NCBI GenBank assembly: GCA_043808095.1
Contig: JAZDFF010000031.1
Span: 37,073-101,072, forward strand
Direction: 5' to 3'
Source of the DNA: Candidatus Omnitrophota bacterium
GTDB lineage: Bacteria > Omnitrophota > Gorgyraeia > JAZDFF01
Length of the DNA: 64,000 nt
The notes under the pieces are model-generated. The model was not told where the DNA came from, ran no database searches, and saw only the letters and a list, made by a program, of their open reading frames with translations. Below, piece after piece: positions 12,351 to 38,404 of this stretch. The stretch's first letter is position 1. Each line of letters begins with the position of its first letter. Made by a program: the position numbers and the translations under genes.

Positions 12351-12469
12351 ACCGAGAGACGAGCTTCGATGACTAAAAGAATAATAATCTCCTTTTGATT
12401 AACCAATATTTATCTGTGCTCATCTTGTATCATTTCATCTGTGCTAATCTGTGTAAAGATGCAACCTTA

Positions 12470-14925: not shown

Positions 14926-15579
14926 ATGAGCATTAGAGTTATTGACTTAGGCCTCATAGAGTTTCTTAAAGCCCACAAGATTCAAAAACACCTCGTTGAC
15001 GAACTTAAATCTAATGGCTGGCACGACACTCTAATTATCTGCGAACACCCCCCGACTATTACCCTGGGAAGAAAAACCAGGCTGGAAAATCTACTTGCCG
15101 ACGAGAAAACCTTAAAAGAAAGAAAAATATCGGTCTTTCGCGCTGACAGGGGAGGAGATGTCACCTATCACGGCCCCGGCCAAATCATCGCTTACCCTAT
15201 ATTTGACTTACGCAGGTATAAAAAAGACATCCATTGGTTCCTAAGGAAACTCGAAGAAATCACAATTGATTTTTTATGGCGATATAAGATATCTGGTGAA
15301 AGAAAAAAGGGTTTTACCGGCGTTTGGGTCGGTAATAAAAAAATCGTCTCAATCGGTATCGGCATTTCTAACTGGATAACCTTCCATGGTCTGGCTATAA
15401 ATGTTAAAACTAACTTAGAATATTTTTCCCTGATTAAGCCCTGCGGCCTTAAAGTCGAAATGACTTCAATGGAAGCAATCTCAGGTAAAAATTACAATTT
15501 AACTGAAGTAAAGCCAGTATTATTAAGAACTATTGAACAGGGATTCAACCACCGTTTTACTAATAGTTTACAAAAATGA
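14926..15579 (+). CDS. lipB: Octanoyltransferase LipB
   Basis: LipB motifs RADRGGDVTYHGPGQ and the catalytic-region context. Confidence 0.8.
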   Translation: MSIRVIDLGLIEFLKAHKIQKHLVDELKSNGWHDTLIICEHPPTITLGRKTRLENLLADEKTLKERKISVFRADRGGDVTYHGPGQIIAYPIFDLRRYKKDIHWFLRKLEEITIDFLWRYKISGERKKGFTGVWVGNKKIVSIGIGISNWITFHGLAINVKTNLEYFSLIKPCGLKVEMTSMEAISGKNYNLTEVKPVLLRTIEQGFNHRFTNSLQK

Positions 15580-17683: not shown

Positions 17684-18400
17684 ATGGCAACGCGCATAGA
17701 ATATCTTCAAAACAGGGTCTTAGGGACATTATCGGAAAAGCTTGATGAATTCTATTTAGCAGGCGGAACCGCGTTATCATTATATTATTTTCATCACCGT
17801 CAATCGTTAGATTTGGATTTTTTCGCCCAAAAATTTTCCCAAAAAAGTGTTCGCAACATTATTAGGCAATTATCTTTAGCTCTAAATAAAGAAATTGAAT
17901 TAATTAGCGAGGAATCTCGAAAGAACAGAGTAAAGATAATGGTTTATTCTCTAATCATTGACAGAAAACGCTCGTTAAAATTAGATTTTGTAGAGGACTA
18001 TCTTAAGCTTATCAGGCCTCCTAAGCCGATAAACGGGATAAAGGTTTTATCTCTCGAGGATATTTATCTTAGAAAAATTTATGCCATAACCGGAACACAG
18101 CAAATTGAGACAGATTTAGGCGCAAAAGTGACTCATGGGGGAAGACAAGAGGCAAGGGATTTTTACGATTTATACTGCCTTTCTCAGATTTTTATGAGGC
18201 TATCGGCTTTTTGTTTTAAATTTGGTAACCCTTTAATGCGCGAGGGCATTATTAGATGGTTTCGCACCTATAGCCGTATGGATATAAAAACAGGCCTTCT
18301 TGAATTAAAATTAAAAAAGAGTATCGCCTATCTTGAAATGGAGAGGCATTTTAAAAGAGAGGTCGAGAAGATTATTGAAAAAGAGGTTAGTTCAATATGA
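17684..18400 (+). CDS. AbiEii/AbiGii-like nucleotidyltransferase (DUF1814 family; type IV TA / abortive-infection toxin-like)
   Basis: N-terminal motif LAGGTALSLYYFHHRQSLDLDFF matches the GGTAL...R.S.DlD signature of the AbiEii NTase family. Confidence 0.55.
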   Translation: MATRIEYLQNRVLGTLSEKLDEFYLAGGTALSLYYFHHRQSLDLDFFAQKFSQKSVRNIIRQLSLALNKEIELISEESRKNRVKIMVYSLIIDRKRSLKLDFVEDYLKLIRPPKPINGIKVLSLEDIYLRKIYAITGTQQIETDLGAKVTHGGRQEARDFYDLYCLSQIFMRLSAFCFKFGNPLMREGIIRWFRTYSRMDIKTGLLELKLKKSIAYLEMERHFKREVEKIIEKEVSSI

Positions 18401-18930
18401 AATTAAAAAGTGATTGGCTTTGGGATAGAAAAATTACCCCCCAAAAAGCAAAGTCTATATTAAGCAGGCCCGATGATGCGCATTTTTTGGGTTTGGCAAG
18501 CCTTCTATTGTCTAGAAAGAACTCGCCTCAGGAGGTATTTAAGAATTACATTAAGACAATGGATTTCTTGCAAAATTGGCAGAGAATTAAAAGACAGATG
18601 CGTAAAGACAACTGGAATAATCCACGCATAGAATTCTGGCAGGCCATTTATGAGACATTAAAGAAAAAAAATAAGATAAAAATGGTTAATATTTACAATG
18701 GGGAAGAGTTAACAAAACCAAAAAATGAATTTTATAGGACCATTGCCGATAAATTAAAAATGATCCGAAAACAAAAAGGGATAAGCCAGGGCGAATTAGC
18801 CAAGAGGCTTAAGGTTTCTCAGCAGGCGATTTCGCATATTGAGATGGGCAGAGATAATGCCTCTTTACTTACTCTCAAAAAGATCGTCGATGCCTTGGGC
18901 GCTAAGCTTGATGTGGAGATTTCCGGCTGA
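18397..18930 (+). CDS. XRE-family helix-turn-helix protein (C-terminal Cro/C1 HTH), translationally coupled to the upstream NTase
   Basis: ISQGELAKRLKVSQQAISHIEMGRDNASLLTLKKI is an HTH_XRE domain. The start overlaps the upstream stop (ATGA). Confidence 0.7.
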   Translation: MKLKSDWLWDRKITPQKAKSILSRPDDAHFLGLASLLLSRKNSPQEVFKNYIKTMDFLQNWQRIKRQMRKDNWNNPRIEFWQAIYETLKKKNKIKMVNIYNGEELTKPKNEFYRTIADKLKMIRKQKGISQGELAKRLKVSQQAISHIEMGRDNASLLTLKKIVDALGAKLDVEISG

Positions 18931-19004: not shown

Positions 19005-19382
19005 ATGACATTAGAGCAAATCAATGAATTATCAAATAAAATTATCGGTTTTGCTATTAAAGTCCATAAAGCCTTAGGCCCTGGGTTTGTTGAAAAAGTA
19101 TACGTAAAGGCATTAATATTTGAATTAGAGAAAAATAAAATCAAGTTTACGCAAGAAAAATCCATTAAAGTTAAATACGAAAATCTTCTCTTGGGCCAAC
19201 ATAGATTAGATTTCTTAATTGAAGACGAAATCATCCTAGAAATAAAAGCAGTTTATGAGATAAATAATTTCCATATGGCGCAAATGCTTTCCTATTTAAA
19301 AGCTGCTGATAAGAAATTGGGTTTAATTTTGAATTTTTCTAGATCAAAATTAGAAATAAAACGAGTTGCTTATAACTTATAA
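19005..19382 (+). CDS. GxxExxY family protein (PD-(D/E)XK nuclease-like)
   Basis: GxxExxY family pattern: KVHKALGPGFVEKVY, D.LIED.IILEIKAV. Confidence 0.7.
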   Translation: MTLEQINELSNKIIGFAIKVHKALGPGFVEKVYVKALIFELEKNKIKFTQEKSIKVKYENLLLGQHRLDFLIEDEIILEIKAVYEINNFHMAQMLSYLKAADKKLGLILNFSRSKLEIKRVAYNL

Positions 19383-19383
19383 C

Positions 19384-19418
19384 TTTGCGCCTTTGCGGAA
19401 TTTTGCGCCTTTGCGGTG
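19384..19418. repeat. TTTGCGG-family repeat (right inverted arm)
   Basis: ctttgcgcctttgcggaattttgcgcctttgcggtg. Confidence 0.6.
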
Positions 19419-19441: not shown

Positions 19442-19888
19442 ATGGCAAAGATCCAATCTCAAATCTTAGTTAAAAAGGGACGCGAAGAGATCTTTAACCT
19501 GCTTAAGGATATGGAGCGTTTCCCGGAATTCATGCGCGACGTAAAAAGCCTTCATATCTTAGAGCATGTTGATAATAAACTTATTACCAAATGGCAGATT
19601 GAGATAGAGAATACCGCAATCACCTGGAAGGAAGAGGATGTCTTCGACGACAAAAACTATACTCTAAAGTTTCATATGCTTGAAGGCGACTATCAGGAAT
19701 ACCAGGGCTCCTGGCGCCTCGAGCCGCATTCCGGCACCACCCGGATTAAAATAGACGCTGTCTTTGACTGGGGTATCCCGGTTTTAGAGAGATTTGTCGC
19801 AAATGTCCTTGAGCGTAAAGCCCGGCTTGCATTTGAGGGCATGCTCAAATCTATCAAGAAAAGATTGGAAGTTGATTTGCACAGATGA
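19442..19888 (+). CDS. SRPBCC (START/Bet v1-like, polyketide cyclase/CoxG-type) domain protein
   Basis: Its length of about 148 aa from MAKIQSQ and its sequence are typical of SRPBCC ligand-binding proteins. The stop codon lies inside a CACAGATGA repeat. Confidence 0.5.
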   Translation: MAKIQSQILVKKGREEIFNLLKDMERFPEFMRDVKSLHILEHVDNKLITKWQIEIENTAITWKEEDVFDDKNYTLKFHMLEGDYQEYQGSWRLEPHSGTTRIKIDAVFDWGIPVLERFVANVLERKARLAFEGMLKSIKKRLEVDLHR

Positions 19889-19920
19889 GCGCAGATAAAA
19901 GAACAGATGAGCACAGATTC
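19880..19920. repeat. CACAGATGAGCACAGAT repeat (inverted orientation of the ATCTGTGCTAATCTGTG family)
   Basis: acagatgagcgcagataaaagaacagatgagcacagattc. It overlaps a stop codon and the next start. Confidence 0.6.
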
Positions 19921-20287
19921 TGGAATATATAAAGACCTTACCTACAAAATTATTGGCGTACTTTACGAAGTTCATAATGAGCTTGGGCCAGTTCATAAGG
20001 AGAATATTTATCATAAGGCAGTTGCGATAGAGTTAAAAAGTAAAAATATAAACTTCGATGAAGAAAAATATCTGCCTGTTATGTATAAAGGTCATAAAAT
20101 AGGGATATATAAACCGGATTTCATCATTGAAGATAAGGTTATATTGGAAATTAAAGCAGTCCCCTTATTAACTAAGGCGATGTTTGACCAGATTTATTAT
20201 TATCTTAAAGGCTCCAAATATAAACTGGTATTATTGGCTAATTTCGGATCCAGTAAATTAACTCTAAAACGCCGTATTTATACATAA
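19907..20287 (+). CDS. GxxExxY family protein (PD-(D/E)XK nuclease-like), second paralog
   Basis: EVHNELGPVHKENIYHKA and D.IIEDKVILEIKAV. It is a paralog of the gene at 19005-19382. Confidence 0.7.
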   Translation: MSTDSGIYKDLTYKIIGVLYEVHNELGPVHKENIYHKAVAIELKSKNINFDEEKYLPVMYKGHKIGIYKPDFIIEDKVILEIKAVPLLTKAMFDQIYYYLKGSKYKLVLLANFGSSKLTLKRRIYT

Positions 20288-20346
20288 CATCTGTGCTAAT
20301 CTGTGAAAACACACATTTTAACTATTAATCTGTGCTAATCTGTGTG
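20288..20346. repeat. ATCTGTGCTAATCTGTG-family repeat, two tandem units
   Basis: atctgtgctaatctgtgaaaac...atctgtgctaatctgtgtg. Other copies lie at 10485-10540, 11064-11106, 12412-12454 and 50651-50740. Confidence 0.65.
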
Positions 20347-20369: not shown

Positions 20370-21470
20370 ATGTCAGATTTCGCCATCATAATTCATCCAA
20401 CAAGCGAAGAACTCCTGCACCGCTACGAGCCGGGAATGAAGAAAAAACCCAGGCAGGTAGTGAAAAAACTTCTCGAATGGATGGCTCCTTTTAAGGCATC
20501 TGATGTAAAGGGTCTGCGCTCTGTTACCGGAAAGACCTTAGACGGATACCTGGTAATGTGCCCGCTCTTAATGGAGCAGATGATTTCCCTAAATCCCCGC
20601 AAGGTGCTTAAGGCAATCGCCAATGCCGGAGAACTCGCCTCTAAATTAGGCGTAAAGATTATCGGATTAGGCGCCTATGCCGCATTAATCGGAAATAAAG
20701 GGCTGGAATTGGCGCAAAAGATAAAGATCCCCATTACTACAGGCGCTGCTTATACCCTGGCAATGATTCCCGAGGCTATTCTTCGGGCGATGAAGATTTT
20801 GGATGTGGAGCCTGAGAAAGCCAAGGTGCTTTTTATCGGTTCCGCTAATAATGTCGTTACTACCTGTATTGATATCCTGGGCCATTCATTTAACCGTATC
20901 TACCTCAATGGCCACCACTCCGAGAGGATTGATAATTATATCCGCCAGCAACGTAAAGACAAAGGTATAAATATAGAAAAAATCAATGACATCAGTGAAG
21001 TCCTGGCCCAGGCTGATGTCATTGTCGTAGCCACAAACAGGATTCCGCCTGCCTTTGATGTCCATAAGTTAAAACCGAAGACAATAGTCTTTGATGTCTC
21101 TTACCCCAGAAAAGTCCCCAATAATCTCCGGGATGATATCCTGGTGATTGACGGCCTGGCAGTCCGTCCCCCGGGTGAGGTTGATTTTAATTTTGATTTT
21201 GGCCTGCCGCGAGGCCTATCTTATCCCTGTATGGCAGAGCCATTAGTCCTGGCATTTGAAAACAGATTTGAGAGTTATTCCCTGGGCAGGGAGATCCCCA
21301 TTGAAAAAGTAAGGGAAATCAGCCGCCTGGCTTCCAAGCACGGCTTTGAAATCGTCGACTTTACCAGCCAAGACAGGCTATTTTCAACCGAGCAGGTAAA
21401 ACAAATAAAAACCAACGCGCAGAAAACCCAAACCTCAAAACGCACCATTTTTTCAACACCGATATTTTAG
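20370..21470 (+). CDS. Putative NAD(P)-binding oxidoreductase (shikimate/quinate dehydrogenase-like Rossmann C-terminal half)
   Basis: KVLFIGSANNVVTT...ADVIVVATNRIPPAFD...IVFDVSYP resembles the AroE-type NAD(P)-binding domain. The N-terminal half is unassigned. Confidence 0.35.
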   Translation: MSDFAIIIHPTSEELLHRYEPGMKKKPRQVVKKLLEWMAPFKASDVKGLRSVTGKTLDGYLVMCPLLMEQMISLNPRKVLKAIANAGELASKLGVKIIGLGAYAALIGNKGLELAQKIKIPITTGAAYTLAMIPEAILRAMKILDVEPEKAKVLFIGSANNVVTTCIDILGHSFNRIYLNGHHSERIDNYIRQQRKDKGINIEKINDISEVLAQADVIVVATNRIPPAFDVHKLKPKTIVFDVSYPRKVPNNLRDDILVIDGLAVRPPGEVDFNFDFGLPRGLSYPCMAEPLVLAFENRFESYSLGREIPIEKVREISRLASKHGFEIVDFTSQDRLFSTEQVKQIKTNAQKTQTSKRTIFSTPIF

Positions 21471-21484
21471 ATTAGGAGTTATTT

Positions 21485-22687
21485 ATGGAAGAGATTAAAA
21501 AAATATTAGATTTTATTGATAGAGTAGGTTTGTATCCGGATATAAAAGCTATTTCTGGATCTGCAACGCCAGAAGTTGTTATAAATGGTAGAAAAACTCT
21601 TCTATTTTCTTCAAATAGTTACTTAGGCATAGCCTCATCCGATAAATTGAAACAAGCTGGTATCGATGCTATAAATAAATACGGGATAGGAACCGCAGGA
21701 GCTCGATTGCTTTCAGGAAATTTAGAAATTCATGTGCAAGTAGAGAAAGAAATAGCAAAATTTAAACACTGTGATGATGCCATTGTATTCAATACCGGCT
21801 ATATGACAAACGTAGGAGCTATTAGTGCAGTTATGAATTTGCCCAAAATTGGCCCTAGTTCATTTTTCAAAGGAACGGGCATCATATTCAGTGACGAGTT
21901 AAATCATGCAAGCATTATTGACGGTTGCAAACTGAGTAATGCCAGTGTGATTATATATAAACATGTAGATATGAAGGATTTGGAAGGAAAACTTCGATGG
22001 CAAAGAAAGAGAAGAAAATTAATTATTACAGATGGAGTATTTAGTATGGATGGCGATATTGCTCCTTTAGATAAAATAGCAGAATTGGCAAAAAAATACA
22101 AAGCAATGGTGATGGTTGACGATGCTCACGCGACAGGAGTTTTAGGAAAAAATGGCAGCGGAACCCCAGAGCATTTTAATCTAACTCAAGACGACATAGA
22201 TATTATGATGGGAACTTTAAGTAAGGCATTGGCTGGTGCTGGTGGTTATGTAGCTGGTAAAAAAGACTTGATTAGATATCTGAGAGTAACAAGTAGGCCT
22301 TACATCTTCTCAACTTCAATGCCTGCTAGCAATTCTGCGGCGGTTATTGCAGCTATAAGAGAAATCAAAGACCACCCAGAATTAATAAGAAGGTTATGGG
22401 AAAATGCTAATCAGTTAAGAGAAGGCTTTAAAGAACGAGGGTTTAATACCTTAAAAAGCCAGTCCCAAATTATACCTGTATTAATAGGTGAAGAAAAAAA
22501 GGCCATAGAAGCTGCAAGGATACTTTTTGAAAGAGGTTTTTTTGCTCCCTGCGTGCGTTGGCCAGCAGTGGCTAAAGGTCAAGCGAGGATTAGGTTTACA
22601 GTTATGGCTTCACATTCAGAGCATCAGATAAATCTCCTTTTGGATGAATTTAGCAAGATTAGTAAAGAATTAGGAATTATCAATTAA
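21485..22687 (+). CDS. Alpha-oxoamine synthase family PLP enzyme (BioF/Kbl/SPT/CqsA-LqsA-like)
   Basis: Class II aminotransferase motifs DELNHASIIDG, DDAHATGVLG and the PLP-lysine context GTLSKALAG. Confidence 0.8.
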   Translation: MEEIKKILDFIDRVGLYPDIKAISGSATPEVVINGRKTLLFSSNSYLGIASSDKLKQAGIDAINKYGIGTAGARLLSGNLEIHVQVEKEIAKFKHCDDAIVFNTGYMTNVGAISAVMNLPKIGPSSFFKGTGIIFSDELNHASIIDGCKLSNASVIIYKHVDMKDLEGKLRWQRKRRKLIITDGVFSMDGDIAPLDKIAELAKKYKAMVMVDDAHATGVLGKNGSGTPEHFNLTQDDIDIMMGTLSKALAGAGGYVAGKKDLIRYLRVTSRPYIFSTSMPASNSAAVIAAIREIKDHPELIRRLWENANQLREGFKERGFNTLKSQSQIIPVLIGEEKKAIEAARILFERGFFAPCVRWPAVAKGQARIRFTVMASHSEHQINLLLDEFSKISKELGIIN

Positions 22688-22723
22688 GTTCTTTAAAAGA
22701 ATGTTAATATAAAGAGGGAGGAA

Positions 22724-23500
22724 ATGAAAAGAAAATTAATTTTAGAGGATGTTTACAAGAATTTAGAGGTAAAAAAACAAGTTAGAATTATGGATAAAAC
22801 GGTGGATGTTCCAGTAAAATATGGAACTCAAGCAATAATGGGATTATTCCCCATATCGACAAAAAAGGCAACTAACTTTATTAATAATACAAGATTAAAA
22901 CCAGTAGAATTTTCTTTCGGGACAAGTCTTGTTTCTATTACTATTTTTAACCATATCGTCTGCCCAGTAGGTCCATATAGAGAAATAGCCTTATCAATTC
23001 CAATAATTCACGATACAAAGATTTCAGTTCCTCTTATCCCTTTTTTATTTAATAAGTTTATAAAAAATTTTGGGTTTTACTCATTTTTACTGACAGCCAA
23101 CACAACTATAGGAAGAGAACATGCAGAGAAAATTTGGGGATACCCTTTTTATAATAAAAACATAGAAGTGCAAATTGAGGAAAACGATTCGGGTTTTTCT
23201 GTACTAGCTGAAGAAAAGTTGGAAAAAGTTTTTTCTTTATCGGTGGAGAAAACAAATAAAGAAAAAATAATAAAAAGAGATTATCAAACCTATTTTTTAA
23301 AAGATGATAAATTAATAAACGTAGAATTAAACACAATAGGAATAAGCGGTTATTCCTTAGACAAGAAATCTGGAAAATTAGAATTAGGCTTTCATGAAAT
23401 TAGCAAAATATTGCAGAACTTATCTATCGATTTAACACCTTTAGAAACAATTTATTACAGAGAAGCTATTAAAATAGCGAATATTCCTAAAGCATTATAA
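22724..23500 (+). CDS. Hypothetical protein, possibly acetoacetate decarboxylase-like (ADC family) fold
   Basis: The size of about 258 aa and the segment VGPYREIALSIPI are weakly reminiscent of the ADC family. No firm motif is present. Confidence 0.25.
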   Translation: MKRKLILEDVYKNLEVKKQVRIMDKTVDVPVKYGTQAIMGLFPISTKKATNFINNTRLKPVEFSFGTSLVSITIFNHIVCPVGPYREIALSIPIIHDTKISVPLIPFLFNKFIKNFGFYSFLLTANTTIGREHAEKIWGYPFYNKNIEVQIEENDSGFSVLAEEKLEKVFSLSVEKTNKEKIIKRDYQTYFLKDDKLINVELNTIGISGYSLDKKSGKLELGFHEISKILQNLSIDLTPLETIYYREAIKIANIPKAL

Positions 23501-23515
23501 CATTCGTTATAGAAA

Positions 23516-25681
23516 ATGATCTATTATTTTAGTTTTAGTTCTTTATTGGGTGGGTTAATAGCTTTATTGACGGGTTTTGTAGTCTATTTCAAAAATAGAA
23601 ATAATATTCTTAATAAGACTTGGCTGTGGCTTAGTTTAAGCGTTGCAATTTGGAGTACCTGTTATTTTCTTCTTATCACATCTCCGACTAAAGACAATGC
23701 TCTTATTTATAATTTGGTCCTGCATTACGCTGCAATTTTTATTCCAGCCTTTTATTTACACTTTATTTTTTCTTTGATTGGATTGTCGCAAAAGAAAAGA
23801 ATAACATTATTTTTATGTTATACAATGAGTTTTGCTTTGGCAAGCATTAATCATTCTACGCTTTTTGTAAAAGATGTCTTGCCGAAATATATTTTTAATT
23901 TTTATCCAGATGCAGGAAAACTTTACTTTCTTTTCTTTCTAGACTTTTTTATTTGGATTAATTACGCTCTTTATGAATTATTCATGACTTATAAAAACAC
24001 TACGGGGTTTAAATCTTTGCAAATTAAATATGTAGGCATTGCTTCTATAGCTGGGTTTATAGGTGGCGGTAGTGTTTTTCTGCTTACTTTCAATATTCCT
24101 GCGCCACCTTTCGGCCTGGCTTTATTTTCTTTATATCCTATAGTAATTGCTTATTCCATTGTTAAATACCGCCTCATGGATATCACTGTTGCTATCACCC
24201 GCACAACTATCTTTGTTTTTGTATACAGCTTGGTATTAGGAATTCCATTTTTTATAGCCAAAACCTGGAGGCCATGGTTAGAAGATATATTTAAATCAAA
24301 TTGGTATTTTGTGCCTTTGGGCTTTCTTGGCTTCTTAGCCATGACTGGTCCGTCTATATACCTCTACATTCAGAAGAAGGCTGAAAATAGACTGCTTCGC
24401 GAGCAGAGACGCTACCAAGAGACTTTACGTCAGGCATCTGCAGGAATGGTACGCATACGGGATTTGAAGAAATTGCTCAATCTCATAGTCTATATGGTAA
24501 GGCGCGCAGTAAAATTAACCCATGTCTGTATCTATCTCTTTGATGAGAAGGCCAACCAATATACCCTTCAGGCAGTACGGGACCAGAATAGAGTGTTTGT
24601 AACTAACTTAGAGTTAGGTAATCATTTAGTTAAGCACCTTAGGGAATACCGCAAGCCCCTGGTTTATGAAGAATTAAAACGGCTTTCAGAAGATAAACGA
24701 GATCTTTCTTTTGTCCTGGCTGAGGCTGAGATGAAAAGGATAAATGCCTCAGTCATTGTTCCAAGTTTTGTTGAGGATAAACTCCTTGGTTTTATTGCTA
24801 TGGGCGATAAACTTTCCGGGAAGATTTTTACTGAGGATGATTTGGCTGTGTTTTCAGTATTGGCGAATCAGGCGGCTCTTGCTATTGAAAATGCCCAGTT
24901 CTATGACGAAGTTCAGGAAACCCAGGAGCAGTTATTCCAGGCAGAAAAAATGGCTACTCTTGGTACAATGGCAGACGGGCTCTCGCATCAGATAAATAAT
25001 CGTTTTCATGCTATGGGTTTAATTGCCGGCGATGCCCTGGATTCGATTAAACTCACCAATGCCGAAAGCCTGCCTGAGGATTCCAAAAAACTGCTCGGTG
25101 AAATAAAACACGCCTTAGAAAAAGTCCAGGATAATGTTATGCAGGGAGGAGAGGTGGTAAAAGGTCTCTTAAAATATTCCCGTCCGGGTGAAGAAGGCTT
25201 TGAAGCCATTACCTTAGACCAGATTATTGACGCCTCTTTAGAGATGGTTCAGTATAAGGTCAAATTAAAGGAATTGGATTTCGTAAGAGACTACGCTAAA
25301 GACTTGCCAAAAGCAAAAGTTAACCTTACCCAACTGCAGGAGGTATTCTTTAACCTTATTGATAATGCCAACGACGCGATGAGACAGAGAAAAGAGGAGT
25401 TAAAAGAGGCTGATTATCGTCCAAAAATTACTGTAAATGCCCAGGGCCTTGATAATGTCCTGCAGATTAAAATAAGCGACAATGGCATCGGCGTAAAAAA
25501 AGAAGACTTCCATAAATTATTCACCCCGTTTTTTACCACCAAGGCCTCCAGCCGAAAAGGAACCGGCCTTGGCCTATTCGTGATAAAAAAGATTGTCACC
25601 AGTAACCACGGTCAAATCTCCGTCGAATCCGAATACCAAAAAGGCACTACCTTCACGATAGAACTTCCGGTTGCCAAATGA
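23516..25681 (+). CDS. Sensor histidine kinase: N-terminal 7TM domain, GAF, HisKA and HATPase_c (721 aa)
   Basis: TM-rich N-terminus paralogous to 15576 and 27386. A GAF-like middle region is followed by H-box LSHQINNRFHAM and ATPase boxes. Confidence 0.8.
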   Translation: MIYYFSFSSLLGGLIALLTGFVVYFKNRNNILNKTWLWLSLSVAIWSTCYFLLITSPTKDNALIYNLVLHYAAIFIPAFYLHFIFSLIGLSQKKRITLFLCYTMSFALASINHSTLFVKDVLPKYIFNFYPDAGKLYFLFFLDFFIWINYALYELFMTYKNTTGFKSLQIKYVGIASIAGFIGGGSVFLLTFNIPAPPFGLALFSLYPIVIAYSIVKYRLMDITVAITRTTIFVFVYSLVLGIPFFIAKTWRPWLEDIFKSNWYFVPLGFLGFLAMTGPSIYLYIQKKAENRLLREQRRYQETLRQASAGMVRIRDLKKLLNLIVYMVRRAVKLTHVCIYLFDEKANQYTLQAVRDQNRVFVTNLELGNHLVKHLREYRKPLVYEELKRLSEDKRDLSFVLAEAEMKRINASVIVPSFVEDKLLGFIAMGDKLSGKIFTEDDLAVFSVLANQAALAIENAQFYDEVQETQEQLFQAEKMATLGTMADGLSHQINNRFHAMGLIAGDALDSIKLTNAESLPEDSKKLLGEIKHALEKVQDNVMQGGEVVKGLLKYSRPGEEGFEAITLDQIIDASLEMVQYKVKLKELDFVRDYAKDLPKAKVNLTQLQEVFFNLIDNANDAMRQRKEELKEADYRPKITVNAQGLDNVLQIKISDNGIGVKKEDFHKLFTPFFTTKASSRKGTGLGLFVIKKIVTSNHGQISVESEYQKGTTFTIELPVAK

Positions 25682-25689
25682 TACAAGGG

Positions 25690-25805
25690 AACCGCAAAGA
25701 ACGCAAAAGTAGATAGCTATTAAAAACACCGCAAAGTTCGCAAAGAATAATTTTGGCGGTTTAGCGGTGAAAAAGTTTAAATTCAATTTTTTGCGCTTTG
25801 GCGAT
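25690..25805. repeat. CCGCAAA/TTTGCGG-family inverted repeat pair (empty element)
   Basis: accgcaaagaacgcaaaag...caccgcaaagttcgcaaag ... ttttggcggtttagcggtg ... ttttttgcgctttggcg. Confidence 0.55.
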
Positions 25806-25822
25806 TAAAAAGGAGCAAAACC

Positions 25823-26188
25823 ATGCCAAAATTATTGATCGTTGATGATGAGCCTGATGTAACAGAATTTGCCAAGAACTTTTTCAAAAAGCGAAAATTT
25901 GACGTCACAACCGCCTCAAACGGGCCTGAGGCCCTTGAGATTATCCAAAGAAATAAACCCGATATAATGCTTTTAGATATCAAGATGGAAGGAATGGATG
26001 GCTTAGAGGTCCTCGAAAAAATTGGCGAAATTACCAAAGATGTCAGGATAATTATGGTTTCAGGGATCGAAGAGAAAGAGTCCGTAGAAAAGGCTAAAAA
26101 ATTAGGCGCAATCGGATTTGTCCATAAGCCGCTGGTGTTGGAAGAATTAGAGAGAGTCGTTTTAAAAGAGGCTGAGAAGATCAAATAG
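25823..26188 (+). CDS. Stand-alone response regulator receiver (CheY-like)
   Basis: DDE at the N-terminus, phospho-acceptor LLDIKMEGMDG, and the conserved Lys context. Confidence 0.85.
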   Translation: MPKLLIVDDEPDVTEFAKNFFKKRKFDVTTASNGPEALEIIQRNKPDIMLLDIKMEGMDGLEVLEKIGEITKDVRIIMVSGIEEKESVEKAKKLGAIGFVHKPLVLEELERVVLKEAEKIK

Positions 26189-26194
26189 AAATAT

Positions 26195-27364
26195 ATGGGA
26201 CTAATAGACTACAAATCGGAACTTGAGGCTGCTGCAAAAAGCATGATCCTGGTACATCATCCGGGCATGCTCATTAAGATGATGGTGCGCATGCTGGTAA
26301 ATAAAGTGCGTCTGCACCATGCCGGAATCCTGCTTTATAATAAAGACCGCAACACCTATATCCTGACGATCTCAAGAGGACAGCGCGGCTTAAAAATTCC
26401 CGCCGGTTATGCCCGCGTAGAGCCCAGCGCAGGACTAGTCAGGTTCTTCAGTAGCAAAAACACCCATTTTAAAGACTCAGTGCTGACAGTCGAACGGATT
26501 AATGCCTACCTTAGAAAAAAAGAAATTTCCCAAAATCAATCTTTGGCTGAGATACTTGTTGAGGCCAAGCGGCAGATGTCTGATTTTGGAGCTGTTACTG
26601 CTATACCGATTTTCTTTCAACAGGATCTATTGGGCGTAATGCTCTTTGGAAAGAAGCGCTCAGGCAAAAAATTCCTGAAGGAAGAACTTAATTTCTTTGT
26701 GGCCTTATCCAGTAATGTGGCCATGGCTATTAGAAACGCCCAGTTATTTGAGGATTTGGCAATCGAGGTTGAAAGGAATCATCGGCTATTTATCCATACT
26801 GCAATGGCCCTGGCAAGCGCCATTGATGCCAAGGACCACTATACCCACGGCCATACCCAGCGGGTTACGGATTATTGCCTGGCTATAGCGCGAAGGCTCA
26901 TTATGCAAAAGGTCCTTAAGCCTAAGGAGGGTTTTCTTGAAAATCTACGCACTTCCGGCCTTCTTCACGATATCGGAAAAATCGGCGTGCCTGAGGCTAT
27001 TTTAGGCAAAGAACAGAAACTAACTGATGATGAAATAACTAAAGTCAAACAGCATTCTTTGATTGGAGTAACAATATTGCAGCCGATAAAGGAATTGGCT
27101 GAGCCTATTTTGGGGGTAAGGTATCATCATGAAAATTTTGACGGAACAGGCTACCCCGAGGGTAAAATTGCCGAAGATATCCCGATTTTTGCCCGCATCA
27201 TCCGTGTCGCCGATGCCTATGATGCCATGACCTCAGACCGTCCCTACCGCAAAGCCTTTACCAAGCACGAAGCCGTCGAAGAATTAAAAAAATACGCCGG
27301 CACCCAATTTGACCCTGCCATTGTCGATGCAGTCGTCGAGCTCTTTCACGAAGGAAATATATAA
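26195..27364 (+). CDS. GAF domain - HD-GYP phosphodiesterase (c-di-GMP)
   Basis: HDIGKIGVP and HHENFDGTGYPEGK, the HD and GYP motifs. The N-terminal half is GAF-like. Confidence 0.8.
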   Translation: MGLIDYKSELEAAAKSMILVHHPGMLIKMMVRMLVNKVRLHHAGILLYNKDRNTYILTISRGQRGLKIPAGYARVEPSAGLVRFFSSKNTHFKDSVLTVERINAYLRKKEISQNQSLAEILVEAKRQMSDFGAVTAIPIFFQQDLLGVMLFGKKRSGKKFLKEELNFFVALSSNVAMAIRNAQLFEDLAIEVERNHRLFIHTAMALASAIDAKDHYTHGHTQRVTDYCLAIARRLIMQKVLKPKEGFLENLRTSGLLHDIGKIGVPEAILGKEQKLTDDEITKVKQHSLIGVTILQPIKELAEPILGVRYHHENFDGTGYPEGKIAEDIPIFARIIRVADAYDAMTSDRPYRKAFTKHEAVEELKKYAGTQFDPAIVDAVVELFHEGNI

Positions 27365-27385
27365 AAAAGCGGTTACTAAAAACAG

Positions 27386-29014
27386 TTACTTAGTAACCTT
27401 GTTCTTCTTTAACTCAATGATAAACTCACTCCTAACGCCAACCTTACTTTCCACTCCAATGCTCCCGCCATGTTCCTTAATTATCCCGTGGGTAATAGAC
27501 AGTCCTAGGCCTGTTCCGGTTTCCTTGGTGCCGTAAAATGGGTCAAAGATATGAGGAAGGTCTTTTGTCTGAATACCGGCTCCTGTATCCTTAATGCTTA
27601 TCTCAACCCAACCAGGCTCCTTATCTACAGTCTTTATGGTCAGGATTCCGCCCTGTGGCATTGCATCGAGCGCGTTGAGGATGATATTTAAGAACGCCTG
27701 TTTTATCTGAACCGGGTCAAGGTTTAGGATAGGATTTGTAGAGTTAAATTCTTTGACTAAGGCAACTTTCTTTTTTAATAAATCATTGGTTAAAAGCGAA
27801 AATGTATCTTCTAATAATTGGTGGATATCGCAGTCTTGTAGCTTAAGAGGGGTGGGCCTGGCAAAGTCAAGCAGGCCGTGGACGATATTATTGATTTTAT
27901 CTACCTCAGAGCCGACAATCCTTTGAAATTTCTCCAAGAATTCCGGATTGTCTTTATTTTCCTTAAGATACTCGGTAAAGGTCTTAATCGAGGTTAAGGG
28001 ATTCTTAATTTCATGGGCCATGCCTGCGGCTAGCGTTGCAACTGCCTTCATTTTCTCTGAGCGACGTATCTCTTCCTCCAGGCGTTCTTTTTCCAGTGCC
28101 AGGGAAGAGAGAGTGCCTTTGAAAAACAGTCGATCAATGATTTTCTGGATTCTGTCTTTGACAGGGTTAAAAAATAGGGCAATTACAAACGCCGCAAGGA
28201 TTGAAGCAACAAGAGAGCTATAGCCCATAAAAGTATGTAACAAGCGTTCAAGGAGCATAACAAAAATTAGATAGGTTGCTGTGATAAAGGCAACCAGAAG
28301 AGAATAAACTAGGCCTTTTTGAATGACTACTTTTATGTCCATGAGTTGGTGTTTGATTATTGCATAGGCCGACACAAAAATAAATATCGGAACAAGATAA
28401 TTACTAAATGGATTAAGAGGATAAAAATGCAAGTTATACATATAAGCCAAATTTGATAGGCCTCCTATATAACCGATAATAGTTGCCCAAAATAAATATT
28501 TTAATTGATTTTTTTTAGTTCCTGTTGATTTTCGATATTTCACATAGAAAAGCCTTTCTGCATAAATAACTGTTATTAAAAAATAGTACCATGTTAGGAT
28601 ATAAAGTGGCCCAACAAAAAAAGAATACTTGATAAATTGATTTGGAATTACTTTGTTAAGATATAATTTAGATGGAAATGTTAATAGGAAGATAATGGCA
28701 ATGACATAAGCAGATTTAAGAATAAAAGCTTTTTTAATATTTAATAATTTGACGACAAAATGTAAAAATAGCACCGGAATCAAAATTACTCCGATATGTT
28801 CCAATTTTCCAAACAGAAGCACCAAATTTTCTTTACCGATCCATCCAATCCAAGATTGACAAAAACTCCATTCAGCAATACATAAACAGAATATAAAAAA
28901 TATTTTGTTTACTGTTTGTTTTCTATTAGAAAAAAATACAAAAATACCAAGAGCAAGTGAAGTAAAACTCGAGAATAATAATGCAAACCTGTAATTAAAT
29001 TCGTAAAATTCCAT
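27386..29014 (-). CDS. Sensor histidine kinase with N-terminal 7TM domain (paralog of 15576..17189)
   Basis: The C-terminal part of the TM domain and the HK core are near-identical in places to 15576..17189 (AIIKHQLMDIKVVI..., AHEIKNPLTSIKTFTEYL). Confidence 0.8.
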   Translation of the reverse strand: MEFYEFNYRFALLFSSFTSLALGIFVFFSNRKQTVNKIFFIFCLCIAEWSFCQSWIGWIGKENLVLLFGKLEHIGVILIPVLFLHFVVKLLNIKKAFILKSAYVIAIIFLLTFPSKLYLNKVIPNQFIKYSFFVGPLYILTWYYFLITVIYAERLFYVKYRKSTGTKKNQLKYLFWATIIGYIGGLSNLAYMYNLHFYPLNPFSNYLVPIFIFVSAYAIIKHQLMDIKVVIQKGLVYSLLVAFITATYLIFVMLLERLLHTFMGYSSLVASILAAFVIALFFNPVKDRIQKIIDRLFFKGTLSSLALEKERLEEEIRRSEKMKAVATLAAGMAHEIKNPLTSIKTFTEYLKENKDNPEFLEKFQRIVGSEVDKINNIVHGLLDFARPTPLKLQDCDIHQLLEDTFSLLTNDLLKKKVALVKEFNSTNPILNLDPVQIKQAFLNIILNALDAMPQGGILTIKTVDKEPGWVEISIKDTGAGIQTKDLPHIFDPFYGTKETGTGLGLSITHGIIKEHGGSIGVESKVGVRSEFIIELKKNKVTK

Positions 29015-29168
29015 ATGCTTTATTTAAATAGAGAAGGGTTCATATTATCTTCGCCACTTTTTCTTTTTTTAACACCGCCAAGACGCCAAATTACTGTCTA
29101 TTGTGAGTCATTCGCAAAGGCGCAAAACCTCTGGCTGCTGATAGAGGGAGAGAGATTCCCGGACTTTT

Positions 29169-29441
29169 TTACCTATAAATTTCTCTTCTGTGGCCTAAGT
29201 CAATGATGTATATGATTAAGGTATTTTTATGGATAGTATAAATGATACGATAATCGCCTACGCGTAAAGAATAATCACCTGAAAGCTTACCTTGTAGGCG
29301 TTTTCCCTGATAAGGATCTGTTTTTAGAGTTTCTATGACGGTTATTAGGCGGGAATACAGTTTTTTATCTATTCTAAATATCTTTTCTAATGCTCCAGCC
29401 GCAAGCCGCGAAAATTCTATTTTAAACATCTGTTTTCTCAA
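29169..29441 (-). CDS. RelE/ParE-family type II toxin
   Basis: 90 aa. The C-terminal YRIIYTI...IIDLGHRREIY pattern is typical of RelE/ParE. Confidence 0.65.
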   Translation of the reverse strand: MRKQMFKIEFSRLAAGALEKIFRIDKKLYSRLITVIETLKTDPYQGKRLQGKLSGDYSLRVGDYRIIYTIHKNTLIIYIIDLGHRREIYR

Positions 29442-29709
29442 TTCTTGCGCGTAACTCTTCTAAAGAAACGGTTTTTCCGGCTTTAATTTCTTTCTTGGCC
29501 TGTTTTATCCTTCTTGCGGATTCTTTGTCCGAGAGGATCTCGATTGTTTCTAAAAATCCTTCATAATCATCGGGGCTTAGCATAATTGCGATCGGTTTTC
29601 CTCTTTTAGTAATAATATAGCGGTCTAGTTTGGTATCTATATTTCTTATTACCTTCGGTAATCCCGGGCGCAACGCCTTTAACGTAATGGCATTAACCAT
29701 TTTAACCAC
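29422..29709 (-). CDS. Phd/YefM-family antitoxin
   Basis: 95 aa. It overlaps the downstream toxin gene and has a Phd/YefM-like N-terminal fold signature. Confidence 0.6.
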   Translation of the reverse strand: MVKMVNAITLKALRPGLPKVIRNIDTKLDRYIITKRGKPIAIMLSPDDYEGFLETIEILSDKESARRIKQAKKEIKAGKTVSLEELRARIEKTDV

Positions 29710-29755
29710 CTCCTGAATAAAGTATACACTAAAGAGTATACTTTGTCAAGGAAGA

Positions 29756-30133
29756 TTAGATTATCTTTTCGACCTTTTCGAGTAAATCTTTTGACTCGAA
29801 GGGCTTGACGATATAGTCAGAGGCGCCGCTTTTTACAGCCTCTGTTGCCATTTCTACGCTTTTATAGCCGCTGACTACCGCGATTTTCTGATTTGGAGAA
29901 AGGCCCTTAATCTGTTTTAAGATATCCAGGCCGCTAATCTTGGGCATCTTGATATCAAGAAGGATAAGGTCAGGTTTTTGCCCCTTTTTGAGGCATTCCA
30001 GGCACTCCTGGCCGTCTGTAGCAAAGGAAAGGTCATAGTCCTTGCCTAAAATCAGCCTCAGCGACTCGCGGATGCCTTCTTCGTCATCGATGCAGTGGGA
30101 AATCTCACCAAACAGACCGATGCCAAAGCACAA
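29756..30133 (-). CDS. Response regulator receiver domain protein, possibly 5'-truncated at the junction with the Rhs gene
   Basis: The REC motifs (DDEE, LLDIKMP, SGY, KPF) are complete. The N-terminal few residues are encoded antisense to the Rhs coding sequence, and the only candidate start is a TTG. Confidence 0.55.
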   Translation of the reverse strand: MCFGIGLFGEISHCIDDEEGIRESLRLILGKDYDLSFATDGQECLECLKKGQKPDLILLDIKMPKISGLDILKQIKGLSPNQKIAVVSGYKSVEMATEAVKSGASDYIVKPFESKDLLEKVEKII

Positions 30134-33100
30134 GTTTTAAACTTTACCTATGACTCGCTCAATCGCTTAACTAGTAAATCCGCAGGCGACAAGACATCGG
30201 TTACTTATCAATACGACAGCGGCCCATACGGCATCGGCCGCTTGAGCAAAATCCCAGATACCTCAGGCCAGACCGAGTTTTTCTACGACAATTTAGGCCG
30301 CGAGATTAAATCTATCAAGACTGTGAGCGCAATTACTTATACTGTTGAGCGCACCTATGATGCCCTGGATAGGCTCACCAGCCTTAAATACCCTGATAAT
30401 AGCATGGTCTTCTACGAGTATAATCCTCAGGGCATCCAAAATGTCCATAGTTATTCATCCGACACTAACGGCCTTAAATTGTATTTGAATTGCAATGGCT
30501 CCGATGGTTCAAGAAATTTTATAGATGCAACCGGCAAAAACGTTAGTGTTTATGGCAATGCCCAAATAGATACTGATCAATACCAGTTTGGCGGTGCCTC
30601 TGGTTTGTTTGACGGCAATGGAGATTATCTCTCATTAGCAGATAGTGATGACTGGAGCTTTGGTTCAGAAGATTTTACAATAGATTTTTGGGTGAGATTT
30701 AATGCATTACCGTCGTCTGGGGATGGGGCGACAATTCTAAGTCAAAGAGAGTCGACTATTAGATGGTATGTGACATTGTGGAACAGAAGTGGAACTTATG
30801 AATGGCATTTCCAGACATCGGATGTTTCTAATAGTATTGTGGTGGTAAAGGCTACGACTGTAGCCATTGATACTTGGTATCATATAGCGGTTGTCCGCGA
30901 TGGCAATAATTTTATGATATTCCAAGACGGCGTTCAAGTAGGCACTACTGTAGCGAGTGCTGATTCTGTACCTGATGTAGCAGGACCATTAGATATAGGA
31001 ACTTTTAATAGAATAGACGCTAATTTGAATGGTTGGTTAGATGAGTTAAGAATTTCTAAAGGTATAGCCCGCTGGACATCCAATTTTACTCCACCAGATG
31101 AATCTGATTACTCCCAGTATAACTATGAAACCTTCATTGCCAACATCGACTATTCACCCACCGGCCAGATTACCAAGATTGTTTATGGAAATGGCACCGA
31201 AACCAACTATGCCTACAATCCCAATACGCTGCGGCTATCGCATCTGACTACGGGTTTATCCGGTCAGGCCGCCACTCTGCAAGACCTGCAATACCAATTC
31301 GACAATGTGGGCAATATCTCAAACATAGCCGACTCAATAAATACTGCCACCCAATCATTCAACTATGATGATTTGAATCGCCTCATTCAGGCGCAAGGCG
31401 CTTACGGCGCATTTAGTTATACTTATGATTCTATCGGCAATATGACTAATAAAGAAGGAGTGGCCTTAACTTATGGCAAGGCCGGGAAACTTCCTCATGC
31501 TGTTACTCAATACGGCTCGACGCTAATTGACTACGACGTTAACGGCAATATGGCCACTAAAGACAACCTGCAATATACCTATGATGCGGAAAACCGCCTG
31601 ACTGAAGTGGAAGACACAACCGCCACCCAGCCACAAACCCTGAATATCAGCCTGCAGCCGGGTTGGAATTTTGTTTCTTTTGCTGTTCTGCCCTCGATTA
31701 CCACGATTAGCTCAGTATTGGCCTCAATCGCCGGAAAATACGACCAGGTTTCTCGATACAATTCAACAACCAGATCCTTCGAGCATTATGTGGGTAATTC
31801 TAAATACGACCAGTTTTCTACCTTTGAATATGGCAAGGGTTATCAGATTTATGTCACTTCAGCAACAGGCGCGGCCCTGACTGTCACCGGAAATATCCCT
31901 TCTTCATTGGATATTTCGCTAAAATCCGGCTACAACCTGATTGCCTGTCCCCAAATGGCTGAGACACCGGTTGAAGAGGCGCTAAAACCTTTAAAATTAG
32001 GGGTTGATTATTCCAAGGTCCTGCATTATAATAAAAACTTAGCGCTCTTTGAAAAGTATGACGCAGAAAGCCACGAGTTCTCAAGCCTGAATCCGGGCGA
32101 GAGTTATTATCTCTATTGCCTGAAAAATACGAGCTGGGTGGCGCAGAATACCGCGCCGACGACAACTTTTGCTTATGACGGCGACGGCGGAAGGGTAAAG
32201 AAGACAGTCGGCTCAAATACCACCACCTACATCGGCTCGCTGTTTGAAAAAGACTCAAGCGGCAAGACTACTAAGTATATTTTCTCGGGAGCAAATCGGG
32301 TCTGCACAGTTGAATCAACCGGCGATAAATACTTCCATCATTCGGATCATCTGGGAAGCAGTAACGTCGTGAGCGACGACAACGGCCAGCAAATTGGCCT
32401 CACCGAATTCACTCCCTACGGCTCAGTTTCACAACAGGCCGGCACCTTTGACCCCAAACACAAGTTTACCGGAAAAGAACTCGACGCGAGTACGGGGTTG
32501 TATTTTTACGGCGCCCGCTACTACGACCCTACCATCGGGAGATTCATAACTGCCGATACGATTGTCCAGTCGCCCTACGATCCCCAAAGCCTGAATAGGT
32601 ATTCTTACTGTCGAAACAACCCTCTAAACTACACTGACCCGACTGGGCATAGTTGGAAGAAGTTTTGGAATAGCTTTGCTGGAGCGTTTGTAGCTGTTGC
32701 CCTTGCTTTTGTGCTTGGTCCTGCTGGGTTGTACTGGGTAGGTTCAACCATGGCCTGGGCAATCGGAGGGGCGGCAGGAGGAGCCCTCACAGGTGGACTT
32801 GAAGGCGGTTGGAAGGGTGCTTTAATAGGCGGGGCTCTAGGAGGTGCCCTAGGTGGTTTTGGCGCTTGGGGAGTAAGGGAATTTGGAGCTGGTTTTGGCT
32901 ATGGGATGTTAGCTGCCGGTGCAGGAGTGGCCGGCGCTACCGATAGCTGGGATAGCTTTGCAGGAGGAGTTGTCGGAGGAATTGCTGGAGCAGCAGTTGG
33001 GAATATTTGGAATGATTTTACTGGTGCACAGTCAGGAGTTAATAGAAATGATTTGGCTGCACAAACTGAACAATTAAAACAAGCCCAGCAAGCCCTTAAT

Positions 33101-34482: not shown

Positions 34483-34616
34483 TTTACAAGGCGAATTCCG
34501 GGGAATTCCGGGGACACACACGTAATTCACGGATTATTTGAATTTCATAAAATTACTAGACGCTTTATTTAAACACTTGGAAAATAAGGACAGCGACTAT
34601 TTATTTTTATATCTAA

Positions 34617-38383: not shown

Positions 38384-38404
38384 GACGAAAATAAAACAGA
38401 CAAA

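Follow-up and report, generated by a model that had tools for sequence, protein, structure and literature searches.

Among described signalling systems, two are similar in layout. In Vibrio (CqsA/CqsS) and Legionella (LqsA/LqsS/LqsT), a pyridoxal phosphate (PLP)-dependent enzyme of the alpha-oxoamine synthase (AOS) family is found beside a polytopic membrane histidine kinase, and in the Rpf/DSF system of Xanthomonas (RpfF/RpfB, RpfC, RpfG) the signal derives from fatty-acyl thioesters and a membrane kinase acts on an HD-GYP protein. We analyzed a 64,000-nt stretch (the window) of a Candidatus Omnitrophota metagenome-assembled genome (MAG; assembly GCA_043808095.1, contig JAZDFF010000031.1, positions 37,073 to 101,072), whose proteins are identical to NCBI records from a 170-kb contig. 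It carries, around positions 20370 to 27364, a modular locus that, judged by comparative genomics alone, would work like CqsA/CqsS, LqsA/LqsS and Rpf/DSF, yet its AOS falls outside the CqsA/LqsA family and its gene set is not that of Rpf. Its enzyme-plus-sensor pairing recurs in several phyla and is probably an undescribed chemical signalling module that is not of the CqsA type.

Organization of the locus and comparison with known systems

The core of the locus consists of six open reading frames (ORFs), all on the forward strand and separated by gaps of 14, 36, 15, 141 and 6 nt, so that the six colinear, tightly spaced genes of the initial annotation were recovered at their exact coordinates and with confirmed domains. 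They encode an acyl-thioester reductase of the AAR/PigE N-terminal family (20370-21470; assigned by NCBIfam, PDB matches and Cys287), an AOS (21485-22687; NCBIfam, catalytic residues and tree), a 258-residue beta-cone protein of the acetoacetate decarboxylase (ADC) superfamily that belongs to a lysine-less subfamily (22724-23500; structural model, fold matches and hhalign), the sensor histidine kinase HK2 (23516-25681; Pfam and motifs), a stand-alone CheY-like receiver domain (REC; 25823-26188; Pfam and intact phospho-acceptor residues) and a GAF-HD-GYP protein (26195-27364; Pfam, NCBIfam and motifs). Pfam and NCBIfam searches of the window returned a Rossmann-type reductase, an AOS-family PLP enzyme, a HisKA_7TM-GAF-HATPase kinase, a REC and a GAF-HD_5 protein. 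The interval of the initial annotation proved too short, since an SRPBCC gene, two paralogous HisKA_7TM kinases and a second REC also belong to the locus. As that annotation had noted for the genes beside the synthase, no bioA, bioD, bioB or tdh gene was present among the scanned neighbours of the window cluster or of the seven related AOS contexts described below.

The loci of the candidate phyla radiation (CPR) described below, with AOS and kinase and in some cases a REC, match the cqsA-cqsS layout, and the extra paralogous receptors of the family recall LqsS/LqsT. In contrast to CqsS and LqsS, the window receptor combines a HisKA_7TM sensor with an added GAF domain; its output is a REC and a GAF-HD-GYP protein instead of LuxU/LuxO or LqsR, and the locus adds an SRPBCC protein, a thioester reductase and an ADC-fold protein. 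As far as can be read from the genes alone, it shares with Rpf/DSF the logic of a signal derived from acyl thioesters and of a membrane kinase leading to HD-GYP. However, the Pfam/NCBIfam scan of the window found no crotonase-type RpfF gene, REC and HD-GYP are separate proteins here, unlike in RpfG, and the HD-GYP protein carries a GAF domain. The kinase, unlike RpfC, is not a hybrid, and in some relatives a 7TM-GAF-HD-GYP fusion takes the place of phosphotransfer.

A 7TM kinase accompanies the enzymes in unrelated neighbourhoods

For neighbourhood comparison, 103 loci (given L numbers here) were retrieved, all relatives being MAG or metagenome contigs. Within the AOS clade (56-77% identity), a HisKA_7TM kinase was located directly downstream of the synthase or one to two genes away in seven of seven contexts, namely the window, L008, L093, L094 (Buchananbacteria), L095, L100 (Pacebacteria) and L102. 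Apart from the synteny between the window and L008, these contexts have unrelated flanks, and three of them (L094, L100 and L102) lack the reductase. L093, with the AOS at 77% identity, has the order AOS, PilZ-formyltransferase, 7TM-GAF kinase; L095 has SRPBCC, reductase, AOS, PilZ-formyltransferase and 7TM-GAF kinase, followed by more two-component genes. Two 7TM-only proteins precede the AOS and the 7TM-GAF kinase in L094, L102 consists of AOS and 7TM kinase, and in L100 an AOS, a 7TM kinase, a 7TM-only protein and a REC lie between tRNA synthetase genes. A metagenome scan started from the single AOS protein yielded four distant loci (41-42% identity), which served as controls only; no HisKA_7TM kinase was found in two distant AOS loci with ample flank (42-45% identity).

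The reductase was linked to the same sensor when an SRPBCC domain was present. A 7TM kinase occurred at most 6 kb downstream in 17 of 20 SRPBCC-plus-reductase loci compared to 0 of 50 loci with a reductase and no SRPBCC (Fisher test, 1.4e-13), in a census of loci with at least 2.5 kb of downstream sequence that was not phylogenetically corrected and in which 4 of the 17 are near-duplicates. The order SRPBCC-reductase, 7TM(-GAF) kinase, REC(s) and GAF-HD-GYP was observed in Omnitrophota, Planctomycetia, Elusimicrobiota and some unclassified MAGs, and the SRPBCC-reductase-7TM loci include a Clostridia-labelled MAG. In L026 and L055, a single 7TM-GAF-HD-GYP polypeptide follows SRPBCC/reductase, and these fusions tie the sensor to an HD-GYP output; both loci are flanked by FadL/TodX outer-membrane channels for hydrophobic compounds. 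Loci L001 to L007, found via the ADC-like protein, encode an SRPBCC-reductase fusion, PilZ, AOS, ADC-like protein and two 7TM kinases within flanks unlike those of the window, the PilZ gene of L001 being placed between reductase and AOS. A PilZ-formyltransferase (Formyl_trans_N) fusion follows the AOS in L093 (3781-4950) and L095 (9200-10372), in the slot of the window's ADC-like gene, and would suggest N-acylation or N-formylation, under control of cyclic di-GMP (c-di-GMP), of an amine that is possibly the AOS product.

Among the partners of the sensor, SRPBCC and reductase are conserved most widely, the AOS pairs with it separately, and AOS plus ADC-like gene form a variable insert. The 7TM kinase appears to be the hub, since it is joined by two types of acyl-thioester enzyme, each independently of the other, and the window has both. 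The unrelated flanks of L001, L011, L015, L016, L020, L026, L055, L056, L094, L100 and L102 ruled out synteny alone as the cause of the conservation. On the co-occurrence check proposed in the initial annotation, the neighbourhood proved conserved in relatives with different flanks and in other phyla. In line with its claim that the circuit had not been described in this form, the literature searched contained no description of this gene combination.

The synthase forms a clade of its own

The AOS is an Aminotran_1_2 protein (Pfam) of the BioF/Kbl/SPT type, and its place in this superfamily, as initially proposed, was borne out by NCBIfam scores and residues. All PLP and catalytic residues (H133, S179, D204, H207, T233 and K236 of EcBioF) are kept in the window protein, and the same six are present in at least 119 of 120 clade members. 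By these residues, the enzyme is predicted to be catalytically intact. Scores were close to one another for four NCBIfam models, TIGR01825 being the best: the enzyme reached 456 bits with TIGR01825 (cut-off, 535), 433.3 with the BioF model TIGR00858 (426.45), 397 with the SPT model (640) and 423 and 337 with the Kbl models NF005394 and TIGR01822 (460 and 493), and tdh is not adjacent. PGAP names it BioF. In contrast, the CqsA/LqsA model NF005526 gave 199.3 bits against a cut-off of 428, and seven related kinase-linked AOSs, with the same NCBIfam profile as the window protein, gave 181-234 bits.

Identity was 38% to EcKbl, 34% to SpSPT, 30% to EcBioF and 23% to VcCqsA, using reference sequences checked against the PDB (2wk8/3hqt for VcCqsA). 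In a neighbour-joining tree with these four as references (LqsA was left out), the window AOS and its 119 closest database relatives grouped together (bootstrap 78/100) to the exclusion of all four references, of which VcCqsA was the most distant. The clade is common to Omnitrophota and Patescibacteria. Thus, the CqsA/LqsA-like assignment of the synthase had to be dropped, and the phylogeny proposed alongside it showed no firm placement inside BioF or Kbl. Because the synthase lies in neither family firmly and the neighbourhood is conserved, the idea of a dedicated locus survives both comparisons.

The best match of solved structure was the broad-specificity Thermus thermophilus enzyme ThAOS (PDB 7poa/8s1y; E 1.8e-97), a member of the BioF/Kbl-related TIGR01825 subfamily, with which the window AOS shares all PLP residues. 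It differs from this subfamily in its score below the cut-off, in its linkage to 7TM kinases and in the Arg of its CVRWP motif, which is absent in the TIGR01825-like L096 protein and in Kbl; the window clade is monophyletic apart from L096. This Arg is of the BioF/SPT type, where Kbl has Tyr. By homology, the product should be an alpha-aminoketone, and the Arg motif hints at an amino acid other than glycine as substrate.

An acyl-thioester reductase paired with an SRPBCC protein

The SRPBCC/START-like protein (Polyketide_cyc; hydrophobic-ligand-binding) is encoded on the forward strand at 19442-19888, as identified by Pfam, its translation and fusions in relatives; the ATG at 19442 is the likely true start according to the translation. 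SRPBCC and reductase are fused in L001, L026, L064, L086 and P0042/P0078-type proteins, and the SRPBCC gene overlaps the reductase start in L008, L009 and L011.

The reductase has a Shikimate_DH-like Rossmann fold, and its top PDB matches were the PigE N-terminal domain (4ppm; 3e-31) and an acyl-acyl carrier protein (ACP) reductase (AAR; 6jzq; 6e-17). According to PMC8341465, this PigE domain converts a thioester into an aldehyde by reduction. With 84 bits for TIGR04058 (cut-off, 449.7) and 164 for NF053554 (cut-off, 850), the window protein is far under equivalog level. It nevertheless shares the fold of cyanobacterial AAR and of the PigE N-terminal domain from the 2-methyl-3-n-amyl-pyrrole (MAP) pathway of prodigiosin, together with the catalytic Cys: C294 of AAR corresponds to C287 here, within a YPCMAEP motif that hardly varies across the family. 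Unlike AAR and PigE, it is SRPBCC-paired or fused and lacks an aldehyde-deformylating oxygenase (ADO) or aminotransferase partner. Its NAD(P)H loop is degenerate, reading GSANNVV instead of canonical GxxGxxG, which makes cofactor binding uncertain. The loop is GATSxxG in its close clade and GATGxIG in distant members and AAR, and the more distant module-linked reductases retain both canonical GATGxIG and the catalytic Cys. By homology, the chemistry should be conversion of an acyl thioester to an aldehyde. The "dehydrogenase" of the initial annotation is hence a Cys-dependent thioester reductase of the AAR/PigE-N type and not a ketone- or alcohol-finishing enzyme, and this family membership ruled out a finishing role of the CAI-1 type.

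The family also occurs in other settings. A second, divergent reductase paralogue (92-209 bits, without Pfam match) directly follows the first in L008 (10091-11092), L009 (10086-11102) and L014 (5118-6206) and is absent from the window. In Bacillota (L010 and about 50 loci, L018-L092), the homologue is widespread as a stand-alone gene; in Sporohalobacter (L010), it adjoins an unannotated 302-residue gene between dus and greA. In Chloroflexota/Anaerolineae (L012, L069 and L091), a reductase without SRPBCC is followed by a REC and then by giant multi-GAF ORFs, the REC of L012 carrying GGDEF and its multi-GAF ORF having 2146 residues, while those of L069 and L091 reach about 3000 residues and run off the locus end. 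This looks like another wiring of the same reductase family to signalling genes.

An ADC-fold protein lacking the Schiff-base lysine

The ADC-like protein had no direct Pfam or NCBIfam match, and searches of PDB sequences gave insignificant matches only with the single protein (E >=0.4) and none with the family profile. Seven close homologues were found in 5.8 billion clusters, and a profile search added 463 more distant representatives; 86 of 105 sampled profile relatives matched PF06314 (ADC). An AlphaFold2 model from a 105-sequence alignment had a predicted local distance difference test (pLDDT) score of 96.2 and replaced a poor 7-sequence model (pLDDT 62), which was discarded. All 23 significant PDB fold matches of the model belonged to the ADC superfamily (ADC, Swit_4259, MppR and Sbi_00515; Foldseek E 4e-10 to 1e-7).

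In hhalign comparison with CaADC (sequence verified as PDB 3bh2), Y74 and E76 matched the conserved Y85 and E87, whereas the Schiff-base lysine K115 was opposite F142. The window protein thus shares the beta-cone fold and the Tyr and Glu of the superfamily (CaADC, Sbi_00515, Swit_4259 and MppR), but has Phe for Lys115 and no sequence-level match to a PDB member. The ADC-like call of the initial annotation holds for the fold, as the model, its 23 matches and the PF06314 relatives agree, and fails for the catalytic lysine. This position is T, H, F or L in the roughly 34 nearest representatives and K in more distant ones; because K115 is replaced, this lysine-less subfamily would not use the canonical mechanism. 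A role as beta-keto-acid decarboxylase acting on a Kbl-type product was ruled out by the missing lysine and by the BioF/SPT-type Arg of the AOS. In the loci examined, the ADC-like gene always follows an AOS. The protein is probably a tailoring enzyme that works without a Schiff base, or else a partner that handles the ligand for the sensor.

Sensor kinases, REC and HD-GYP output

HK2 comprises a HisKA_7TM domain (residues about 12-224), a GAF domain (about 316-458) and DHp/HATPase domains with intact H, N and G boxes. HK1 (15576-17189, forward strand) is a HisKA_7TM-HisKA-HATPase protein without GAF (Pfam) whose 7TM domain matches that of HK2 with 122 bits, and it probably serves as another receptor of this family. 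HK3 (27386-29014, reverse strand; Pfam), convergent with the cluster, has the same HisKA_7TM-HisKA-HATPase architecture, and a second stand-alone REC lies upstream of it (29756-30133, reverse strand), with a ParE/Phd toxin-antitoxin pair between the two. Tandem or extra 7TM proteins are also found in the related loci L001, L094 and L100. We know of no ligand assigned to the HisKA_7TM sensor domain.

The core REC has the acidic pocket as well as D52 and K102. The GAF-HD-GYP protein carries LLHDIGK and HHENFDGTGYP, hence intact HD and HHExxDGxGYP motifs; the motif search returned LLHDIGK and YHHENFDGTGYP, with an HD_5 score of 133.8 bits. It is a predicted c-di-GMP phosphodiesterase. In PMC5847659, HisKA_7TM is listed just as a sensor domain.

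The sensor domain co-varies with the tailoring gene

GC content at third codon positions (GC3) changes within the cluster. It is 0.51 for the reductase, 0.27 for the AOS and 0.22 for the ADC-like gene, the lowest of 66 ORFs (window median, 0.39). Within HK2, it is 0.24-0.30 over the first ~240 codons and rises to 0.40-0.50 for the GAF/kinase part, the REC and the HD-GYP gene. The low-GC3 island thus comprises the AOS, the ADC-like gene and the 7TM part of HK2, up to about nt 24250.

Domain identities show a similar mosaic. Compared to the window, L093 is closest in AOS (77%), GAF domain (53%) and kinase core (62%). In its 7TM domain, however, it is the least similar (30%), and it carries the PilZ-formyltransferase, not the ADC-like gene. 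Conversely, 7TM similarity is highest (44-45%) for L001 and L007, whose ADC-like protein is likewise of the F type (62-63%) but which are otherwise distant (AOS, 38-42%; reductase, 27%; kinase core, 33%). Variation in the 7TM sensor domain thus tracks the tailoring gene instead of the other domains of the same kinase, which is the pattern that a ligand-receptor pair predicts.

Insertions and neighbouring elements

Between SRPBCC and reductase, the window has a GxxExxY/PDDEXK_3 gene (19907-20287, forward strand; 19880-20344 with its bracketing repeats), identified by Pfam/NCBIfam and the repeat scan. Since SRPBCC and reductase overlap or are fused in relatives, we regard this gene as an insertion that splits the ancestral junction and lies outside the pathway. 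Inverted copies of a 17-nt repeat, ATCTGTGCTMATCTGTG, stand on both sides of it; this repeat is dispersed over intergenic sites, and 10 copies with at most 2 mismatches were found compared to 0.01 expected (at 10485-10540, 11089-11105, 12437-12453, 19880-19918, 20289-20344 and 50652-50739). The repeat resembles a repetitive extragenic palindromic (REP)-like or miniature mobile element. A second GxxExxY/PDDEXK_3 gene (19005-19382) lies on the other side of SRPBCC; the two are 43% identical with very low GC3, and this one has an inverted repeat of its own (18974-18995/19400-19421) as well as an 18-nt tandem (19381-19416), which overlaps the TTG start that was mechanically called for SRPBCC.

Toxin-antitoxin pairs break up the signalling region: AbiEii with a helix-turn-helix (HTH) protein at 17684-18930, and ParE with Phd at 29169-29709 on the reverse strand. 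AbiE and HEPN/NTP-transferase pairs occur in or beside L009, L093 and L095 at similar positions. Compared to L008, about 12 kb (27386-39500) are inserted between the HD-GYP gene and the MGDG synthase gene. This insert holds the third 7TM kinase, the toxin-antitoxin pair, the second REC, a 1152-residue RHS/LamG protein (30095-33553), a PD40-repeat protein, an IS200-type transposase (36621-37244) and several low-GC3 ORFs without family match.

In a promoter and terminator scan of the cluster, counts were no higher than in shuffles and no informative internal terminator was found; one hairpin (27371-27398) lies at the convergent HD-GYP/HK3 junction. An Rfam scan found no riboswitch near the cluster. 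An ordinary cobalamin riboswitch (43972-44208; 73 bits) lies elsewhere in the window, upstream of a cluster for a BtuF/FecCD-type transporter, CobT and a TonB-dependent receptor.

Proposed mechanism and alternative explanations

We consider it likely that the genes of the locus form one functional unit, and we give about an even chance to the narrower claim that the enzymes make the kinase's own ligand. Our preferred reading, for which the balance is likewise close to even, is a modular small-molecule signalling system in which enzymes make or tailor a hydrophobic acyl-derived ligand, the 7TM-GAF kinase senses it and c-di-GMP is the output. The cassette of SRPBCC lipid-binding protein, AAR/PigE-type reductase, AOS and lysine-less ADC-fold protein would produce or modify a hydrophobic compound that originates from an acyl thioester. 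Our best guess for this compound is an alpha-aminoketone, formed by the AOS from an amino acid and acyl-coenzyme A (CoA) or acyl-ACP; the aldehyde chemistry of the reductase may contribute, and the ADC-fold protein may act as a non-Schiff-base tailoring or ligand-handling partner. The HisKA_7TM sensor of the adjacent kinase, possibly with its GAF domain, would detect the compound, and the kinase would phosphorylate the stand-alone REC. The REC would in turn control the GAF-HD-GYP phosphodiesterase and so lower c-di-GMP. In the fusion variants, the signal would pass straight from 7TM-GAF to HD-GYP, and PilZ domains embedded in the cassette of variant loci could let c-di-GMP feed back on synthesis. 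The enzymes as ligand source, the nature of the ligand, any secretion of it and the step from REC to HD-GYP are inferred. Of the circuit proposed in the initial annotation, the linked unit of acyl-handling enzymes, membrane kinase and HD-GYP protein was retained, whereas the CqsA-type synthase and the finishing dehydrogenase were not.

Several observations weigh against this signalling reading. Two of the four "enzymes" may be non-catalytic, given the degenerate reductase loop and the ADC-like protein without its Lys, and GAF domains and FadL channels would fit the sensing of an intracellular or imported lipid equally well. The AOS and the ADC-like gene are missing from most SRPBCC-reductase-7TM loci, and are thus non-essential to the core circuit. 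Gene order agrees on a chromosome scale between the window, L008 and L009, with leuCDB, mdh, lpd and lplA on the upstream side and MGDG synthase and LpxL on the downstream side, so that the three represent one lineage and are not independent. The AOS linkage rests on seven contexts, the census lacks phylogenetic correction, and the AOS is just above the BioF cut-off (433 versus 426), which leaves some probability to a role in biotin synthesis, although TIGR01825 scores higher.

An unlikely alternative is membrane-lipid homeostasis, in which the 7TM-GAF kinase would sense the state of the membrane or its lipids and the enzymes would be lipid-modifying effectors under c-di-GMP/PilZ control and not signal synthases; their products would be a fatty aldehyde or alcohol or sphingoid-like amino lipids. 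Lipid binding by SRPBCC domains, PilZ within the cassette and an AOS about equally near SPT, BioF and Kbl would suit this explanation, as would the lipid genes at some loci: MGDG synthase and lipid A acyltransferase genes after HD-GYP in L008 (at 39575-41712 in the window), an ICMT/PEMT methyltransferase in L008, a PlsC-like acyltransferase in L009, and CDP-alcohol phosphatidyltransferase and PgpA in L011. However, the MGDG/LpxL neighbours reflect lineage synteny and are 12 kb distant in the window, no ceramide synthase or ketosphinganine reductase partner was seen in the loci, and the CPR loci have only AOS and 7TM kinase(s), without lipid genes, between tRNA synthetase genes. Moreover, the co-variation of 7TM domain and tailoring gene is expected of a ligand-receptor pairing and not of a generic membrane sensor. 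We judge somewhat less likely still that an exogenous hydrophobic compound (a fatty acid or aldehyde from a host or partner, or a foreign autoinducer) enters via FadL-type channels, is bound or converted by SRPBCC and the enzymes and is reported by 7TM-GAF to c-di-GMP. Omnitrophota and CPR bacteria are ultra-small and often dependent on partners, the module has FadL/TodX genes at its flanks in L026, L055 and L011, and a reductase with a degenerate loop and a Lys-less ADC-like protein would suit binding proteins. Yet the Pfam scan of neighbours showed no FadL gene near the window cluster, the distant module-linked reductases keep GATGxIG and the catalytic Cys, and the AOS, fully catalytic by its residues, would perform biosynthetic chemistry.

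It is very improbable that the locus serves ordinary metabolism, in which case the AOS would be BioF or Kbl, the reductase would have a housekeeping role as it has in Bacillota, and the two-component neighbours would be functionally meaningless. The PGAP name, a TIGR00858 score 7 bits above its cut-off, the extensive synteny with L008 and L009 and the occurrence of the reductase alone, without signalling genes, in about 50 Bacillota loci speak for it. They are opposed by the cross-phylum adjacencies in unrelated flanks (7/7 for AOS and 17/20 for SRPBCC-reductase), the domain fusions, a low-GC3 island that takes in only the sensor part of the kinase, the lack of bioA/D/B or tdh in any of the contexts scanned and a clade separate from EcBioF and EcKbl (78/100 bootstrap). 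Beyond the signalling reading preferred here, a broader and more tentative possibility, to which we give clearly less than an even chance, is that Omnitrophota and Patescibacteria share an autoinducer-like family, with an aminoketone signal made by the AOS clade and a HisKA_7TM receptor, to which an SRPBCC/reductase branch, HD-GYP wiring and PilZ feedback are added, and in which tailoring genes and 7TM domains are swapped as specificity cassettes. If so, the SRPBCC/thioester-reductase lipid branch would join in Omnitrophota and some Planctomycetia and Elusimicrobiota, and the window's low-GC3 island of AOS, ADC-like gene and 7TM domain would be one such specificity cassette.

Implications for signalling in Omnitrophota and CPR bacteria

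To our knowledge, next to nothing has been described of cell-cell or partner signalling in Omnitrophota and CPR bacteria. The conserved pairing of enzyme and receptor provides a concrete candidate ligand source for the HisKA_7TM domain. Besides CqsA and LqsA, it would be a second case in which an AOS enzyme was independently recruited to a sensor kinase, and it would add a new input to c-di-GMP, in which a lipid-derived signal reaches an HD-GYP protein as in DSF signalling, with other parts. As the minimal CPR version has just two or three genes, the module should be amenable to heterologous expression.

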